From assembly GCA_963765145.1 (NCBI GenBank), contig CAVXVG010000026.1, positions 96,001 through 160,000 of the forward strand: 64,000 nucleotides of DNA, given 5' to 3'. A model generated the notes under the pieces. That model saw only the letters and a program-made list of their open reading frames with translations. It was not told the origin of the DNA and searched no databases. The translations under genes and the position numbers were made by a program. This stretch comes from Parachlamydiales bacterium (lineage in GTDB: Bacteria > Chlamydiota > Chlamydiia > Chlamydiales > JAJFMK01). Shown in pieces: positions 3,351 to 54,861 of this stretch (position 1 is the stretch's first letter; each line of letters begins with the position of its first letter).

Positions 3351-3796
3351 AGCGTTTGGAGTGTTAAACTCCTGAGACACTTGCAAAAATCAGAATGAAC
3401 TCTGGTAAAGCTCTTAACATCTCTTAAGGGCTTTTGGTAACAATATAAAAATAACAGGATGAACAAGATGAACAGGATAAGCTCTGCCTGCATTCTATTT
3501 TTTTATCATGTCTATCATGTTTATCCTCTTAATCATGTATTTTCTATTACGTTACAAGAAACATGATAGATGGGATATGCATGATAGACATGATAAAAAA
3601 ATAGAATGCAGGCAGAGCTTATCCTGTCGCCGTAGGCGATCCTGTTCATCCTGTTATTTTTATAGGAAGCTTTTCCTTAGGTTAATGCAATGCATGTGGG
3701 CCTATTTCGGTCTGAATTTTGCAAGTATCTCTCCTGTTTAGCTTTGACTTATCAGTGAAAGTGAAAGGCTAAACGGGCTCAGGAGCACTCCAAACG
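3351..3796. repeat. Nested palindrome complex: family A interrupted by family B, which contains nonamer palindromes D and E
   Basis: A left arm 3351-3373 resumes at 3732-3796; see findings. Confidence 0.85.
3374..3731. mobile_element. MITE-like element, family B copy 1
   Basis: Terminal IRs gagacacttgcaaaa / ttttgcaagtatctc, flanked by direct repeat TCCT (3370-3373, 3732-3735). Confidence 0.75.
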
Positions 3797-11683: not shown

Positions 11684-14545
11684 TTAAAGCTCCTGAGTGA
11701 TGTAGACGATTTCAATGAACTCGATCACATCTTCTGGTTCAATGTCTGTAGTACCGTCTAAGACAATACCGCACTCAAAGCCTTTCTGCACTTCACGGAC
11801 ATCTTCTTTAAGACGTTTCAATGAAGCAAGGCCACCGCGCCAGATCTGTTGACCTTTACGCTTAAGGACAGCTTTGTAATTTCTATGAACGACGCCATCA
11901 GTGATCATGCAACCAGCAATGATACCCACATGTGAAGACTTGAATGTTTGAAGAACAGTAGCGCTTCCTTTCAAATTCTCTTGGGCCAGTTTTTCTAGCT
12001 GACCTGCCATGAGCACCTTCACATCGTCGATAGCGTGGTAGATCACATCGTGTATTCTGATCTCTACGCCCATCTCTTTTGCAAGATCTTCAGCATGCGA
12101 CTCAATCGAGTTGTGGAAGCCAATAACGACAGCTTTAGAAGCTGCAGCTAATTGAACGTCAGACTCTGAAATTTCTCCCACACCGGTGAATACGATGTCG
12201 ATATCGACCTTGGTAGAGGTGATTTTGAGTAAAGCAGCCTTTAATGCTTCCAAAGAGCCCTGTACGTCTGCACGGAGGACTAATCTTAGCATTTTCTTGC
12301 CGGCCCCACCTTGCTGTAGGAAGGAATCCATCGACCGTTTGTTTAAAAGCTGGCTTTTTGCTCTCTTCTCGATCGAACGTGTTTCGGCAATTTCACGTGC
12401 TTCTTTCTCATCTTTTACCACAATAAACTCATGGCCGGCTTGAGGGAGGCCAGAAAGTCCTGTGATCATTACAGGAGTAGATGGAGGAGCCTCTAATAAC
12501 TCTTTGCCCAACTCATCTTTCATCGTCTTGATACGGGCCCATTCTGTGTCAAAGACAACAGCATCACCTTTTTTCAATGTTCCGTTTTGGACCAAAATAG
12601 TCGCTACAATACCCATACCTTTATGCATTTCAGATTCAATGACTGAACCTCTGGCACGTGTATGAGGGTTGGCTTTTAATTCCAAAACTTCAGCTTGCAG
12701 GGCAAGCATTTCTAGAAGTTGAGGAATACCGGCACCGGTGACAGCAGAGCAATTCACAGTAATGGTTTGACCACCCCATGCTTCTGGTAAAAGGTTGTTC
12801 TCAGCTAATTGACGATAGACATTTTCAGCATTGAAGTTTGGCTTATCAGATTTGTTGATCGCAACCACAATGGTGACGCCGGCACTTTTTGCGTGTTGCA
12901 ACGCTTCAAGTGTCTGCAGTTTCATCCCTTCATCACCGGCTACTACTAGAACAACGATGTCGGTTACTTCTGCACCACGCGCTCTCATCGCTGAGAAGGC
13001 TTCGTGGCCAGGAGTATCTAAAACAGTAATCTCACCAACGGCTGTCTTACACTTAAAGGCACCGATATGTTGAGTAATAGCGCCTGCTTCTTGACTAACT
13101 CGATTGGTTTTTCTGATATAGTCGATCAAGCTTGTTTTACCATGGTCAACGTGACCCATGAAAGTGACAACAGGTGGTCTTAAAATTAGCTGTTCACTTG
13201 GCTGATTTTTAACTTCATCTCGAATGGAGCTGCTAGTGATCCGAATCCTTTGCTCTTCTGAAGTGTCAATGGTGACCTCGCAGCCGAATTCATTACCCAA
13301 AAATTGAAGGGTTGTTTCGTCATCTAACATGTCGTTTAGTGTAACGACAGTCCCTTGTAAGAAAAGTTTTGCAATTAGCTCAGAGGCTTTTAACTTTAGT
13401 TCGCTTGCAAAATCTTTAATCGAAATTGGTGGTCTGATTTTTAAAGAAGTAGGTTTTACTGTTTGTGCATCATCGCGCGGTGAAAACTTCGATTTTGGTT
13501 TTCTGCGACGACGTGCTTCACCATCACCACTATCTCGTAAACCTTGTCTATCTCTAGAGTCGAAAGAAGAACTAACTGTTGTTAAGGTTTTCTTTACAGG
13601 TTTAAAGTCTTTAAAATCTTTTGATTTAGCTGGACGGAGGTTGGCTTTTTTAGCGTCAGCTGTGTCTGCTGCTGGTGGTCCAACTCTTCTAGGTTTTGTT
13701 TTGTCACTAGAAGCAGCTGCAGAAGTTGTTGTTGGCGGTCTGCGTGGAGGTTCCGGTTTAACAAAATCGCTTATATGCCTTCCAGTTGGTCCTAAACGCT
13801 CTTTCTGCGAAGCTTGCAACTTGGCAAGACCTTCAGGAGAGGCTTTCTTTTGAACTGAAAATGGGCTGACATATTCTTTGTGCTGTTTAAAAGGAGGTCT
13901 TGTTCCCGGTACCGGACCTGTAGATGCCGGTCTTGACTCTCGCGGCTCACGTGGAGGAAACGTAGAGGGCGCACTTGTTCTTGAGTCACCTCCATATTTA
14001 GAATCTCCATCTCTTCTAGCTGGTCTGAAGAGAGGGGCTCTTGGGGGAGGAGTCGAAGGTTTTGCCATTTCTCTTGGAGGTTGCGCAGGTGGAGGGGAGA
14101 CAATGGCAGGCTTTTCTTCCGGCTCTTCTACTAGTTTAGGAGTAGGAGTTTCTTCGATCGGAGCAAATTTTTCTTCCGCAATTTCTAACGGAGTTTTAGC
14201 AACCGTTAGAGCTGGAGTTGGGGTTGCAACTTCTTCTTCTTTCTCTTTTGCCGAATCTTCTGCTGCAGGTTTTGTACCGCCAGCAAAAGCTGAGCGAGAA
14301 CGAGCCTTCACTTTAGGGGCTTCCGCTGCCTCTTCAGTTAATGCATGATGCCCAGGATGGGTTAAAGTTTCTGCGAGAGGCTCTGGCTTGACTTGTGTTT
14401 CTGAAGGCTCAGCGGAAGGGGGAGGAACTTCGGTTTCCTCACTCTTCTTCTCTTTTTTCAGAGCGATCTTTTTTTTCAGATCCCCAAGATGTATCGCTTC
14501 GGCTAGCTGAGCGTTCTTTATGTTTATTTTGAATTGTTTAGTCAA
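11684..14545 (-). CDS. infB: Translation initiation factor IF-2
   Basis: [32 protein letters not shown]. Confidence 0.98.
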
Positions 14546-15828
14546 GTGAGGCTTTCCCCTGTTTTTTGACTGAGTCTATAATTTTTTCAGCACTTTCCAG
14601 GCTAATTCCTGGGACTTTTGAAAGCAGTTGAGGTGTTGTCATGAGCAGATCTTTGAATTTCTCAAACCCATGTTCCTTCAGCTGGTCTACAATCATTTGA
14701 TTGACCCCTTCAATCGCTTCAATAGGTTTGTCCAAATGGCCTTCAGAAAGAGATGAGAGATAGGCACTTTGCTCTTGAACTTGTGATAGATTGTAATCGG
14801 TCATCCCATGCACTTCAAGTGTATAACCAATTAAATCACCATTTAACCGTTGATTGGAGTGACGTTTGCCGACAACTGTGGCAAATTGATCGTCATCAAC
14901 AACGATAGAAATGACACGGTCTTCATCCGACACATTGATTTTACGGATTTCGATAGGGGAGAGAGCATTTTGCAATAGCTCGATCGCATCTTGAGAGAAA
15001 GGAATAATGTCGATTTTTTCATTGTTCAGTTCTCGAACAACGTTCTTAACTCTCATTCCGCGCATACCAACACAAGCACCGACAGGGTCGATTTTTGGGT
15101 CGTTCGACCGGACGGCTAATTTAGTACGGTATCCTGCATCTCTGACAATACGTTCGACGATGATTTGTCCATCATGAATTTCTGGGACTTCTCTATCGAA
15201 AAGTTTGACGGACAAATTCTGGGTCGCTTCTTGAGAGGACGACTTGTGCCCCGCCATTTTCTGTATCTTCTACGTGCGAAAGGAGCGCCATGACTTTATC
15301 GCCAACATGCCATTTTTCGGTCTTAGGGTAGTTTCTCATCGGCAAGATGGCTTCTACTTTTCCTAAGTCGACGATGAGGTTTGCCCCTTTAACAAATCGT
15401 TTAACAGTGCCTGAAACAATTTCATTGATTCTGTGACGATATTCTTCGTAAATCACATCTCTTTCGGCACTGCGCAGTTTTTGCGAGATGACACTTCTGG
15501 CTTTCTGAGCAGCGATACGGCCGAAGTCTTTTGGGGTAACTAATATATCAATAAATTGTCCAAGTTCTGCGTCGGGGTCGATTTCTTTTGCAGCAGTGAT
15601 CGATATTTCTTGGGCAGAGACTTCTACGGCATCAACGATTTCCTTTTCAGAAAAAACATCGATATCCCCAGTCTTTGGATTAATTTTCACGGTAACGTTA
15701 GAGGCGCCGTGGACGCTTTTCATAGCAGCAGCTTCAAGAGATTCTTGGATGGCAGCCAACACAATCTCCCGTTTGATCCCTTTTTCTCTTTCGAGATACT
15801 CAAAGATGGCTATTAGATCTTTATTCAT
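14538..15828 (-). CDS. nusA: Transcription factor NusA, split by a 1-bp insertion near 15205
   Basis: FGRIAAQKA and S1 domain in the first ORF; EVPEI, RDAGYRTK, DPVGACVGMRG in the second. Confidence 0.95.
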
Positions 15829-21881: not shown

Positions 21882-24369
21882 ATGTTTAACATTCCTTCTA
21901 AAAGTTTTTTTTACAAAGCTGCAGCCTATTATGGGACGCTATCTTTCGGCATAATTGTAGCAAAAAAACTTGAAGCGCCTTTTTTAAAAGCAATAGAAGT
22001 AGAAAAAGCTGCCCAAGCAGCAGCTCGAGCTAGGTTGCAAAATCGGACAGATGCTCAAAGTTATCGCCAACGAGATTATCATTGGATAACGGAAAAACTT
22101 TTATCTTTGCCATTAGTCCGAGTTGTTACTTATATTACCATATCTACTTTTGGCTTCGCAGAAACCGCGGAGTTTCCTAATGATTTAGATAAATTTTGGG
22201 AGAAGGGAGAACTCGGACCGCTCATCCAAGGATTGGAGAAACAGATGGAGTCTCCAGATGGCATTACTTGGAAGCCTAAAACAGGTCTCAAAAAAGCTCC
22301 TCCGCTTCCACGTTCGGTGACTCAAACCCCCAAGTTTTGTCTCGATTTGACCAAAGCAGCAGAAGATGGGATTTTGCTCCCTTTTGTTGGGCGAGAAACC
22401 GAATTTAGAAAAATAGCTGAGATTTTAGGATGCCAACAAAAGAATGGCCCCTATTTATTAGGGCCGCAAGGTGTTGGAAAAACTGCTATAGCAAAAGGGT
22501 TGGCTCAAAAAATTGTTTATCGTGGAGCTGATCTTCCCTCAATTTTTCAAGGGAAGAGAATATTTCTTCTCAAGTGGGAATTAATAACGGTCGAAGCAAG
22601 CCCCCTTAGTTCTGTAGCAGGCAGGCTTTCTTCCGTCCTTAAGGAGGCAAAAACCCATAAAGAAAAGATGATACTTTTTATCGACGATATCGGTGGTTTT
22701 TTCGATTTTAGACCTGGGCAAGAAGAGGTTAGTGCCCTCTTAAAGTCAGCATTAGCTGATGGATCTATTTACTGTATGGCTGCCGCAACCGCATCGGAAT
22801 ATGAAAAGCTTATTGTCGGTAGCAATATTTTAGAACGTAGCCCAGCTTTAGATCGTGGTCCTACGATAGAGATCGTTGAACCTAATGAAACAGAAATGTT
22901 AGAGATTTTACAAGCCTTCATTCCAACGTTAGAGGCGCACCATGGTGTGCAGATCACTTCGGAAGCTATTCATGAATGTATTAACTTATGTAGTCGTTAC
23001 CTAAAAACTGAAAGCTTTCCTGCAAAAGCAATTGATTTACTTGACCAAGCGGCTAGCAGGTTGAGCGCAGAAAAAAGGCCTTTCGAGGACCAGAAGGTAA
23101 AGCGCTATTCGATTTTCATTAAATTTTTGATCGACCTTAGAGGCCATGCCGCTGATCCCAGATTGTTCAACGAAAAGATCCAAGAACTTAGAAGAGGATT
23201 CCCGAACAGTCTAACTGGAGAGTTAATCCGTAGTGTAATGGCTGAAAAGGTCGAACTGCCTTTAGAAAAAATGAAGGGAAAAGAAAAAGATACCTTAATA
23301 AATCTTGAATCTTTGCTTTCAGAAAAGATCATAGGACAAAAAGGGCCTATCAAATCTTTGTCTGGAGCGATCCGACGCAACTCGAGTTAATCTGACAAAT
23401 CAAAATACCCCTGCAGGAGTGTTTTTGATGTTAGGGACAACAGGCGTGGGTAAAACAGCCAGTGTCCAAGCATTGGCTGAAATTCTTTATGGGTCAGCAG
23501 AGGCAATGCTTCAGCTAGATATGTCAGAGTACGTGGATAAATGGGCCTACACAAAGCTGATAGGTGTTTCTCAAGGATATGTTGGACAGGAGAAAGGGGG
23601 AAGATTGACCAACTGGCTGAAAAAGAGGCCCGCTTCGATTGTGCTCCTTGATGAAGTAGAAAAAGCGGCTCCAGAGGTTTTTGATCTTCTCTTACAAGTT
23701 TTTGATGCAGGTAGGATCACCGATGGGAATAACGAAACGATCAAGTGTACCGACACCATCTTCATCATGACCTCTAACTTAGGTGCTAAGGAGATCCAAA
23801 ATTTTTGGGAATCGAAAATGTTAGCAAAAACACCTCAAGGTGAAGAGAAGGTGAGGCAGCCCTTGGAAGGGTGGTATTCTAGATATGTTTATATTGGCAA
23901 AAAAATTCAAGGTATCTGGGCAACGTATATGCAAAAAAAACAGATTGAACCGGCCAAACATTACACTGAAGCTCATCTGCAGCTTGTCGTCGAACAAGAG
24001 CTTTCGAAATTTTTTAGACCTGAATTCATAGGCCGTATCCAAGAAATTGTGACATTTCTTCCCCTGACACCCGAAGAAATCGGCCAGGTAGCCGAACTAC
24101 AATGTCGCACATTGAAAAAATTGGTAGAGAGCAATATAAACTGTCCAGGTCTTAGTCTTGAATGGGATCAATCGTTGATTAATTTGTTAGTAAAACATGG
24201 ATACAATCCAGAGAAGGGGGCGCGACAGCTAGCTCATTGCATCACGAAGTATGTGACCACGCCAATCACAGAGATGATGCTTGGAGACAAAATCACGGCA
24301 AATAAGACGATCTATGTCTCAGCTGACGAACAGCGTGTTCTTTTCAAGATTAAAAAAATGGACGAATAG
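21882..24369 (+). CDS. ClpA/ClpB-like double AAA+ ATPase with atypical N-terminus, split by a 1-bp insertion near 23381
   Basis: GPQGVGKT, PAKAIDLLDQA, IIGQ; then GTTGVGKT, DMSEY, LLDEVEKA, FRPEFIGR, GARQL. Confidence 0.85.
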
Positions 24370-29493: not shown

Positions 29494-29798
29494 TTGCCAC
29501 GGGTTAAAACCCGTGGTAACAAGCTCGGATTAAAGAGCCATTTGCAAAAATCAGTCTTAGCTCAAAATAGACTTGTATGCATTGCATTAACCTAAGGAAA
29601 AGCTCCCTATAAAAATAACAGGATGAACAGGATGAACTCTGCCTCGCCTTATCGTTTTGTAAACAGAAAATTATTTTAATTGGCGAAGCTTATCCTGTTC
29701 ATCTTGTTCATCCTGTTATTTTTATATTTTAACCAAAAGCCCTCAGGTAGGTGTTAAGAGCTTTATTAGCTAATCGCTGAGTTCCATTCTGAGCTAAA
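29494..29798. repeat. Partial family C palindrome plus family B copy 2 containing family D
   Basis: ccacgggttaaaacccgtgg core; TAAA then gagccatttgcaaaaatcag at 29535; interior flanks match the reverse complement of 3390-3710; right IR lost. Confidence 0.8.
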
Positions 29799-32574: not shown

Positions 32575-32965
32575 TGTAGCTTAGGCTTTAGAGGTACTTG
32601 CAAAAATCGGATTGTTGGCTTTTTTTTAGAAACAGGTCCGAAGGACCGAAATATGAAAGCCCAGCGCCGAAGGCCTGGGTTACAAATGTGAAATAAAATT
32701 GGAGTCCTGAAAGGACGGCATAAAATATCTCCTGTAGTGTTTGTGGAACAGGATATGTCGTCCCTTCAGGACTCCAATTTCTATTGGCATACTTACCCTG
32801 GCCTTCGACCAGGGCTTTCATATTTCGGCCCTTCGGGCCTGTTTCTGAGCTTAATCTGATTTTTGCAAGTGGCTCTTTAGCCTGAGCTTGTTTTTGCAGG
32901 TTTTAACCTGCATTACCACAGGTTAAAACCTGTGGAAACGAGCTCAGACTAAAGTCTAAGCTACA
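32575..32965. repeat. Family C palindrome interrupted by family B copy 3
   Basis: Arms tgtagcttaggcttta[B]tttagcctgagcttgttt and aaacgagctcagactaaagtctaagctaca; core ccacaggttaaaacctgtgg. Confidence 0.85.
32591..32875. mobile_element. MITE-like element, family B copy 3
   Basis: Terminal IRs gaggtacttgcaaaaatc / gatttttgcaagtggctc, flanked by TTTA (32587-32590, 32876-32879); REP-like interior. Confidence 0.75.
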
Positions 32966-39496: not shown

Positions 39497-41152
39497 ATGG
39501 AAAAAGTGCATTCTAATATACAACCCGTTGATAATACACGACCCATTCAATGGAAATCTTCCCTTCTTCGGTTGGGAGGAGCTGTGGTAGTAACGGCGAT
39601 TGCTTTACTCGCTTTGCAGATAGAAAGAAAAAACGTTGAATATTTTATTCATGACGTCAAAGAAAACGTTTTCAAATCCGTTCATATAGATCCGTTTTTA
39701 GCTTTAAGTCTTCTTGTCATTGTTGTTGCGTGTATCAACTCAATCAATTCAATCAGATCGATTCTTAAAAAGAAGGAAACGACAACTGGATTAGAAATAA
39801 AGTATCTAACTCATGAAAAATTTCTCGTCTTATTAAAAAAACTCTATCCAGACTATGTGGCTGCTGGACTTTGTAGAGGATATTCTTTAACAGTGATAGG
39901 CGATCTCTTAGAAGAATCTTCTTCTTTCAGAGGCAGTCTAAAGAAACTAGACAGTCTGATGGGTCGCTTTAAGGAAGAAGATCTTATAAGAAAGATTAAG
40001 GAAGATGAAGAACTATCTGATTTTTTCAAGAAGATATATACGAAATATTATAAACATAAAACAGACAACCTAATCGGGGCAGTATCGGGTACTTATACTA
40101 GCCCTCAAGATCTCTTACCTCTTATGCTTAGTTTTCAAGAACAGTTAAACTCCGCTTCAATTCCTTTTAAAGCTCTAGTTTTTTCGATTGGATCCAAAGA
40201 CCACAATATCGTATTTGGATTCAACTCAGAGGAAAACGTATATAGATTGATAGATGCTAGTGATTTAAATTTAAATATTTTTCCTTTGGACTCCATTTCC
40301 AAACAAATAGCTAGTTCTTATGATCTTCCAGAGAAAAGCAAAGCCTTTTATGTGCAAGTTTTCTTATCTACAGATAATGAAAATGAATTAGGCTCCAAAA
40401 ACACTTTTAATGCTTGGAAAACATCTATTTTACCTAAGCACATCCAAAGCCTATCTTCCTTAAGCGAAGAAGAAAAATCTAATTGGCTCTACAGTGCTGC
40501 TTATTCAAACGATGTGCAAAGCGTATGTTTACTTGTTGACAAAGGGGTAAACGTTAATCAGACAGGTAAAGGGGGATTTACCTCTCTTCACGTGGCTTGT
40601 CAAAATGGTCACGAAGAAGTCGTTAAAATACTTGTTGATAAGGTAAATAATTTTAATCAAACAACTAAGGCTGGATCTACCCCTCTTTTCGTAGCTTGTC
40701 AAGATGGTCATGAAAAAGTCGTTGAAATACTTATTGGTAAAGGATCGAACGTTAATCAAGCAAATGAGAATGGGGCTACTCCTCTTTACATGGCCTGTCA
40801 AAATGGTCGTGAAAAAGTTGTTCAATTACTCATTGATAAAGGAGCTGACGTTAATCAAACAGATAAGGATGGATGTATCCCCCTTCATGTGGCCTCTGCA
40901 AATGGTCACGAAGAAGTCGTTAAACTACTTATTAATAAAGTAGATAACGTTAATCAAGCAAATAAGAATGGATGGACCCCTCTTCACGTGGCTTCTCAAT
41001 ACGGTCATGAAAAGATTGTGCAAATACTTATAGATGCCAAAGCTGATGTAAATCTAGCAAACAGAGCCGGGGCTCGTCCCTTAGCATTCGCTCGTTACAT
41101 GAAACATAAAAAGATTGAACAAATGCTTCTTGCTGCAGAAGGCAAATGTTGA
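39497..41152 (+). CDS. Ankyrin-repeat protein with two N-terminal TM segments and a putative C58/YopT-like protease domain
   Basis: About six ankyrin repeats (GxTPLxxAcxxG); GLCRG ... HNI ... LID triad spacing. Confidence 0.85.
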   Translation: MEKVHSNIQPVDNTRPIQWKSSLLRLGGAVVVTAIALLALQIERKNVEYFIHDVKENVFKSVHIDPFLALSLLVIVVACINSINSIRSILKKKETTTGLEIKYLTHEKFLVLLKKLYPDYVAAGLCRGYSLTVIGDLLEESSSFRGSLKKLDSLMGRFKEEDLIRKIKEDEELSDFFKKIYTKYYKHKTDNLIGAVSGTYTSPQDLLPLMLSFQEQLNSASIPFKALVFSIGSKDHNIVFGFNSEENVYRLIDASDLNLNIFPLDSISKQIASSYDLPEKSKAFYVQVFLSTDNENELGSKNTFNAWKTSILPKHIQSLSSLSEEEKSNWLYSAAYSNDVQSVCLLVDKGVNVNQTGKGGFTSLHVACQNGHEEVVKILVDKVNNFNQTTKAGSTPLFVACQDGHEKVVEILIGKGSNVNQANENGATPLYMACQNGREKVVQLLIDKGADVNQTDKDGCIPLHVASANGHEEVVKLLINKVDNVNQANKNGWTPLHVASQYGHEKIVQILIDAKADVNLANRAGARPLAFARYMKHKKIEQMLLAAEGKC

Positions 41153-47608: not shown

Positions 47609-47704
47609 CGCGTTAGCGTTTGGAGTGCTAAACTCCTGTTTAGCTTTCACTTTCACTGATAAGTCAAAGCTAAACAGGAGTTTAGCACTCCAAACGCTAA
47701 CGCG
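47609..47704. repeat. Family A palindrome, perfect 39-bp arms and 18-nt loop
   Basis: cgcgttagcgtttggagtgctaaactcctgtttagcttt-cactttcactgataagtc-reverse complement. Confidence 0.95.
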
Positions 47705-54779: not shown

Positions 54780-54861
54780 GCGTTTGGAGTGCTAAACTCC
54801 TGTTTAGCTTTGACTTATCAGTGAAAGTGAAAGCTAAACAGGAGTTTAGCACTCCAAACGC
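54780..54861. repeat. Family A palindrome
   Basis: Perfect arms with loop gacttatcagtgaaagtg; a degenerate A-like arm also lies at about 54710. Confidence 0.95.

Follow-up and report, generated by a model that had tools for sequence, protein, structure and literature searches.

Element B, a 285-bp non-coding sequence at positions 32591–32875 of the window (the whole 64,000-nucleotide stretch of Parachlamydiales DNA that was analysed), belongs to a well-supported family of IS1182-type miniature inverted-repeat transposable elements (MITEs) which nest in the hairpin tips of REPIN repeats. It shows the features by which MITEs are recognised, namely short terminal inverted repeats, a target duplication, a small, non-coding and multicopy body, and an autonomous element with the same ends in the genome. 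On the evidence of sequence comparison, B is probably a MITE of IS1182 type that was moved in trans, with a cut staggered by four bases at the tip of a REP hairpin doubling the hairpin loop.

Element B and its family

Both termini of B are exact matches to the 18-bp sequence GAGnnACTTGCAAAAATC, the left inverted repeat (32591–32608, forward strand) being common to a full-length insertion sequence (IS) and the right one (32858–32875) lying on the reverse strand. This pattern has six matches in the window when up to two mismatches are allowed, which is beyond chance because shuffled sequences gave a mean of 0.09 and none of 100 shuffles reached six. TTTA borders B on each side (32587–32590 and 32876–32879, forward strand); these are the two copies of the target duplication, the first of which is the loop of the left REP hairpin. 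No ORF of at least 100 aa overlaps B, and its interior (32628–32846, unstranded), of class B1, consists of nested inverted arms of a repeat family denoted E. The host repeat, denoted C, is preserved around it. On the left is the outer half of the left REP, with its GTAG foot and the 5' side of the hairpin stem (32575–32586, forward strand). On the right are the 3' side of the left hairpin, the palindromic interior and the inner half of the right REP (32880–32949, unstranded), and then the empty loop (TAAA on the forward strand), outer half and GTAG foot of the right REP (32950–32965, reverse strand). Removal of B with one TTTA yields a 102-bp palindrome with a left arm that mirrors the right arm and, among the rows listed, it aligns over its full length, at 78–88% identity, with empty C copies of 105–108 bp. 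The composite of B and C lies between the converging 3' ends of a 274-aa ORF and a LOG-family gene. As regards an orthologous site without B, contigs of two related strains connect 32187 with 33040 over the composite, with only 28 letters on one side and an unread stretch between, and no related-strain contig spanning the composite locus was found.

A sister copy (3374–3731, forward strand, class B4, 358 bp) matches GAGnnACTTGCAAAAATC with no and one mismatch at its ends and carries an interior unlike that of B, a doublet of repeat family F, between TCCT at 3370–3373 and 3732–3735. Its host is a GGAG-footed hairpin of family D with the loop TCCT (3358–3373, forward strand), whereas B resides in C at TTTA; at each site the host arm contains a small hairpin, and the 4-mer is exactly its 4-base loop. 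A third copy (29535–29792, forward strand) is decayed and B2-like, with an F interior and its left end alone intact, and it follows TAAA (29531–29534), a C loop, in a remnant C right arm. The preliminary description had stated that B and the sister copy share terminal repeats around different interiors, that TTTA flanks B on both sides and that excision of B restores the left arm of C. Exact end matches, the located repeats and the alignment of the excised palindrome with empty C copies bear this out. Its placing of both insertions inside a palindrome arm also holds and can be refined: the site is exactly the 4-base hairpin loop within the arm, and the loop corresponds to the duplicated bases. 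The layered intergenic structures that it proposed are present too, with B inside C and E or F repeats inside B.

Some other genes of the window deserve mention. The nusA gene is split into overlapping ORFs (N-terminal 15193–15828 and C-terminal 14538–15257, within 14538–15828), each below the cut-off, and as the gene is normally essential, this points to a frameshift or a fault of assembly. Two consecutive ORFs of 502 and 316 aa (21882–24369) make up a ClpB-like AAA+ gene, and a 551-aa ankyrin-repeat protein (39497–41152) shows a weak likeness, under the cut-off, to Dot/Icm effector models. The host appears to be chlamydial, as its EF-P passes PRK12426, a chlamydial model, and a homologue of the partner transposase described below bears the label Chlamydiales.

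In the genome that contains the window (G000; 37 contigs, 85% complete), 30 exact ends were located together with 29 carrying one mismatch and 17 carrying two. They resolve into 30 paired elements and five good ends without a partner. One of the paired elements is a 1,459-bp IS and the other 29 are dispersed miniatures of 163–358 bp: 15 copies of class B1 (284–288 bp, four subtypes, B1a to B1d), seven of B2 and two of B4 (270–358 bp), and five of B3 (163 bp). Direct 4-bp duplications flank 21 of the 30 paired copies, seven have inverted (reverse-complementary) 4-mers and two have neither. The eight B1a copies are 98.6–100% identical, and the similarity of seven of them to the window copy (98.6–99.6%) suggests a recent burst.

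The family extends to other genomes. In another species of the genus (G001), B1-like copies and an IS remnant abut C halves, from which it follows that the association of B with C predates the split of the two species; G001 also harbours short copies of 47–79 bp that consist of the ends only, with a 4-bp duplication. A sister MITE in a further genome, G003, has 4-bp duplications at eight of 12 paired copies, a count that leaves out one doubtful 744-bp pairing, and no hairpin is evident at its sites; no match to C was found in G003.

The partner insertion sequence

The preliminary description had proposed a non-autonomous element with a DDE transposase as partner, and it suggested searching for a transposase gene bounded by the same repeats, with IS5 and IS1182 as candidate families. 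Such an IS is present at G000:C27:207333–208791 (1,459 bp), with the same inverted repeats as B and a duplicated TAAA, and it is itself inserted in a C loop. Its single ORF encodes a 381-aa protein with the Pfam domains DUF772 and DDE_Tnp_1, in which three acidic residues (D147, D274 and E336) do not vary across an alignment of 30 of the 120 listed homologues. It is the sole match to this transposase in the 85%-complete assembly. Among NCBIfam models the IS1182 model NF033551 ranks best, at 119.8 bits against a cut-off of 270 that is a naming rule for a 488-position model and not a definition of the IS1182 family. Since the score falls under this naming cut-off, we class the IS as IS1182-type and ISUnCu17-related. 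Assignment to IS5 was rejected, as IS5 models gave 22–69 bits, under the cut-off and under the IS1182 score. Among plasmid matches, the transposase is 41% identical over 98% of its length to that of ISUnCu17 (NZ_AP026405), the inverted repeats of which are near-identical to those of the partner IS and which likewise makes a 4-bp duplication; the other top matches are mostly annotated as IS1182. A homologue with 59% identity is labelled Chlamydiales.

B and the partner IS have 18–20 terminal bases in common and no more, and for the miniature classes overall the figure is 18–26. An origin of B as a plain deletion derivative of the resident IS was rejected on this ground, no class sharing more than 18–26 terminal bases with it. 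Because the likeness of B to the IS ends at 18–20 bases, the real mobiliser could be an isoform absent from the 85%-complete assembly.

A side observation concerns the terminal bases. At all four D-hosted copies (G000:C2:80825, C26:85039, C26:99374, which is the window copy at 3374, and C27:237751) at least one end starts with GAGA, as against one of the 22 C-hosted copies (Fisher p 3e-4, the copies not being independent). The same pairing of a GAGA end with a D loop occurs in one related-strain contig and probably in G001 (L034). Such ends may be the trace of another IS isoform, absent from the assembly, with a preference for D loops.

Target sites and the mode of insertion

Repeat C is an inverted doublet, about 106 bp long, of GTAG-footed imperfect hairpins, and its 104 arm matches lie mostly in doublets of 105–108 bp. 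Its arms, including the one to the left of B, flank a gene (C5:119088–119692) that passes the RAYT model NF047646 with 103 bits against a cut-off of 80, and a second, probably broken, RAYT copy (C28:46450–47350). GTAG-footed imperfect hairpins, inverted doublets, singlets formed by internal deletion, arms shared with a RAYT gene and the use of REPs as IS targets are features of REPIN/RAYT systems, according to the available parts of Bertels and Rainey (2011, PMC3116915) and of PMC3733652. With GTAG-footed hairpin doublets that share their arms with a RAYT gene, C fits the definition of a REPIN, its RAYT-dependent mobility being putative. D, the GGAG-footed hairpin family, is the most abundant repeat counted in G000, with 205 empty loops, and forms doublets in the window at 47622–47691, 54786–54855 and 62483. 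No RAYT or transposase gene flanked by D arms was found among the Y1 matches inspected (the six of the 85%-complete assembly less that on C3). Many C copies are themselves nested in surroundings associated with D, and D::C composites recur with identical contexts.

The insertions are precisely placed. Twenty-six of the 30 paired copies lie exactly in the 4-base loop of a C or D hairpin, where about 0.02 would be expected in the 460 kb of non-ORF DNA, an enrichment in palindromes of the kind that the preliminary description had suggested looking for. The sites comprise 22 C loops, including that of the IS, four D loops, one decayed C-like half matched on one side, and three elsewhere. Most copies thus neither lack duplications (21 of 30 have them) nor lie outside palindromes. 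C loops hold every interior class as well as the IS, eight element types in all (B1a to B1d, B2, B3, B4 and the IS) being found in loops; B1a occurs in C loops in both orientations and in differing C variants and interiors, and identical outer contexts are seen both empty and filled (in an 8-member and a 12-member series). Taken together, the classes, the two B1a orientations, the varied C interiors and the empty and filled contexts indicate largely separate insertions.

Occupancy differs strongly between targets. Filled sites amount to 22 of 102 C loops and four of 209 D loops, while none of the 26 inner C hairpins with a TTTA loop is filled (Fisher p 0.007 and 2e-8 for the contrasts, significance being inflated by the kinship of the copies), nor any of 43 under a looser pattern. 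A hairpin with the right loop is therefore insufficient for insertion. The preference for hairpin-forming repeats that had been attributed to the transposase thus stands as far as palindromic repeats are targeted, and fails for hairpins as such. At non-REP insertions with duplications, in G000 (C24:70576) and in three G001 copies, a C-TWRA-G core is mostly kept. Against a reading of sequence alone, all 20 ARRC-TWWA-GYYT sites that lie outside C loops are empty; as these sites may be coding, this is explicable by selection, and it also fits a structural requirement. Separately, at G000:C36:44461–45062 two different miniature elements stand in tandem with one TTTA between them, flanked by outer C halves, so that half of a target can apparently be supplied by the end of an element.

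A survey of relatives yielded 99 loci, many of them from a few Acidobacteriota genomes; the 77 with an end pair were counted and the 22 lacking one left out. There were 4-bp duplications at 59 of the 77, 5-bp duplications at four and none at ten, and only eight of the 64 with a duplication of at least 4 bp had a contiguous stem of at least 5 bp at the site. Stem sequence appears to matter, since TTTA-loop hairpins with another stem escape insertion and most relatives occupy non-hairpin sites. Targeting of repeat tips recurs in chlamydial relatives. Two ISs, one 95% identical from a metagenome (L167) and one 54% identical from a Chlamydiae MAG (L113), are both in C-type loops. In genome G342 a 44%-identical IS with GGGAC ends and 5-bp duplications is found in an E hairpin in all four copies (L153, L159, L163, L165), the same repeat family that B1 carries as its interior, and one relative in G236 lies in another hairpin. 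Four copies in G123 have no common target. Another related IS (L118–L125, OZ252219.1) is inserted at CCGG inside one repeated sequence in most of its copies.

We propose that the DDE transposase of the C27 IS would act on B in trans, as the shared ends, the shared target and the near-identical dispersed copies suggest. Its cuts in the two strands of the REP hairpin tip would be staggered by four bases, which would double the loop. Target choice would depend mainly on a symmetric motif of about the form ARRC-TWWA-GYYT; among intergenic sequences the C loop would be the best and most numerous match to it, and the D loop a poorer one. We lean slightly towards the target being read as a symmetric sequence; a need for an extruded hairpin is a weaker candidate. 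The unequal occupancy of the C, D and inner hairpins, the C-TWRA-G core kept outside REPs and the sites of the G003 MITE without evident hairpins speak for the reading of sequence.

The main alternative is that an extruded hairpin or cruciform is what the transposase recognises, and that a single structure-dependent step has two outcomes, duplication of the loop or replacement of the stem-loop (pathways c and a of Wan et al. 2017). We consider this unlikely, yet it would account for insertion at the exact loop, for the segment lost from the copies with inverted 4-mers being itself a stem-loop, and for one of only four D-hosted copies being of that type though double insertion in D is very unlikely. 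It also accords with the use of other hairpin families by the chlamydial relatives in G342 and G236, and with the deletion of hairpin targets showing little sequence consensus by IS1272/TnSha1, as described in the available text of PMC5678879 and PMC4923244. It is at odds with the unfilled inner hairpins, all 26 of them well paired with a TTTA loop, and with the scarcity of stems at the relatives' duplicated sites. Moreover, adjacent deletion accounts for duplication loss in evolved E. coli populations in 14 of 14 cases, according to the available part of PMC11708052.

Of the copies with inverted 4-mers, five read TTTA...TAAA between outer C halves (a tandem neighbour accompanies one of the five) and one reads TCCT...AGGA between outer D halves; in these six the host interior is missing. 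The seventh reads TAAA...TTTA, and G001 holds two more copies that are perfectly symmetric. In our reading, one end of an inserted element would attack the loop of the opposite arm, some 75 bases away, and so delete the host interior, and such adjacent deletion to the opposite loop is the likely, and simplest, route to inverted 4-mers. Adjacent deletion has been documented for other ISs (PMC11708052 and PMC1525189, in the parts available). As a source of inverted 4-mers, quasi-palindrome correction is unlikely for most G000 cases, since the outer halves differ in four of the five TTTA...TAAA copies; for the two perfectly symmetric G001 copies it is possible. Recombination between two insertions in one REPIN is also possible, but too rare to explain seven copies (two doubly filled C copies exist) and implausible in D.

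A rare variant of the C arm is confined to two loci (G000:C5:33114 and C19:41531), both filled by B1a, interior-less and with differing outer flanks. Because this variant is common to two inverted-4-mer copies with different outer flanks, purely local deletion is an incomplete account; it is possible that a unit of REP foot, B and REP foot was copied whole, or that gene conversion occurred.

The product with inverted 4-mers is formally equal to the outcome of IS1272 stem-loop replacement, which makes a one-step route possible. The family as a whole does not follow the IS1272 pattern, 21 of 30 copies having duplications and seven being replacement-like. In its fullest form such a route would have one transposase acting on the REPIN in a single step with two outcomes, loop doubling or interior replacement, and the replacement unit being copied by RAYT, so that DDE and HUH miniatures would carry each other. 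This seems improbable; if true, E hairpins would ride inside B, and B inside C.

Passenger repeats, known systems and significance

Two arms placed back to back form the interior of B1, and they are homologous to the arms around a Y1 transposase gene (C24:56584–57231), which passes the IS200/IS605 model (71 against a cut-off of 55) and fails the RAYT model (21 against 80). Judged by these scores and arms, E derives from an IS200-type Y1 element that has lost its gene, and is not a REPIN with a RAYT. Fifteen of the 21 E loci lie inside paired B elements, so this rare repeat persists mainly as a passenger of another element. The interiors of B2 and B4 belong to family F, whose inverted arms are built of 9-bp units of the ACAGGATGA type and occur at about 60 loci (in the window at 3444–3664, 29608–29726 and 58598), and 54 of 63 F loci are outside paired B; the six Y1 matches of the 85%-complete assembly, that on C3 left out, yielded no gene that could be a partner of F. 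The B3 interior occurs at two additional loci, one a truncated B3 and the other diverged.

Palindromic repeats such as E and F would have come between a pair of ends and been amplified with them. Judged from the copies compared, the interiors are passengers that were settled when each class was founded; mosaics are occasional, and there is no cassette exchange system. The earlier notion of swappable cargo is to this extent overstated: different interiors do lie between the same ends, with a few mosaics, but they are fixed within each amplified class (98.6–100% identity in B1a). That B is an active carrier swapping interiors among copies is accordingly very improbable. Three unrelated interiors between identical ends, the few mosaics (C15:7441 and related-strain contigs) and the short G001 copies, which have these ends and a 4-bp duplication, could be read in its favour. 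Against it, each class has a uniform interior, neither a conserved junction nor a recombination site inside the elements was seen, and E and especially F are ordinary repeat families of G000.

Least credible is the view that there was little targeting, B having entered C once or a few times with the C+B composites then multiplied by RAYT or gene conversion and selection purging other insertions: the rare arm variant at two B-filled loci only, with differing outer flanks, the recurrence of D::C composites and the safety of intergenic repeats as landing sites would suit it, but it is already largely refuted by the diversity of orientations and hosts, that is by eight element types in loops, B1a in both orientations, varied C interiors and two host families, as also by the independent use of the same site by other species and IS isoforms and by a base-exact position across 460 kb of non-ORF DNA that selection cannot yield.

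The REP-targeting ISs compared here belong to the families IS3, IS110 and others, and IS1397 is reportedly a further REP-targeting IS. As with B, the insertions of ISPsy8, ISRm22, ISPa11 and ISPpu9/10 always occupy the same point of a REP. For ISPsy8 and ISRm22 this point is the palindrome axis, and short direct repeats are formed; adjacent deletion or recombination has been invoked for some ISRm22 copies without matching repeats (Tobes and Pareja 2006, PMC1525189). These ISs are autonomous, however, and MITE derivatives with captured repeats are not among the results reported in the available part of that paper. REPINs and RAYTs correspond to the host C and not to B, which has the DDE-type ends and target duplication that are absent in REPINs, as far as the available text of PMC3116915 goes.

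ISUnCu17 resembles the partner IS in its single DUF772-DDE transposase, its length (1,483 bp), its near-identical inverted repeats, its 4-bp duplication and the 41% identity, but its examined site is not a hairpin. IS1272 and TnSha1, of the IS1182 family, also have a single DUF772-DDE transposase, and some IS1182 members target palindromes (Siguier et al. 2015, cited in PMC5678879 and PMC4923244). In the parts of these two papers available, IS1272 removes the hairpin, makes no duplication and is found mostly at terminators, whereas most B copies double a REP loop, replacement of the REPIN interior is seen in a minority, and almost every copy is non-autonomous; loop duplication is an explicit pathway in Fig. 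13 of Wan et al. MITEPye1 of Paracoccus yeei is similar to B, being a 159-bp non-coding, intergenic element with 18-bp IS1182-like terminal repeats and 4-bp direct repeats that is presumed to be moved in trans, but it has one to three copies per chromosome, and REP targeting or captured repeats are not described in the available part of the report (PMC11578231).

A full-text search of freely accessible papers found no published work joining MITE, REPIN and IS1182 and no description of the B element, and for chlamydial REPs only PMC3733652. Publications already exist on ISs that target REPs, on IS1182 members that target palindromes and on MITEs of IS1182 type, so the suggestion that B represents an undescribed system is overstated.

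The B family reveals no new class of element and implies no host function. Its interest lies in one genome holding a transposase, 29 miniatures, two REP-type targets that differ greatly in how often they are hit, a hairpin that is never hit and so acts as a control, the RAYT belonging to the main host, and identical contexts in both empty and filled form. This unusually complete natural set is a practical test bed for the question of whether IS1182 elements read their palindromic targets as sequence or as structure, and it bears equally on whether loop duplication and stem-loop replacement share one reaction.
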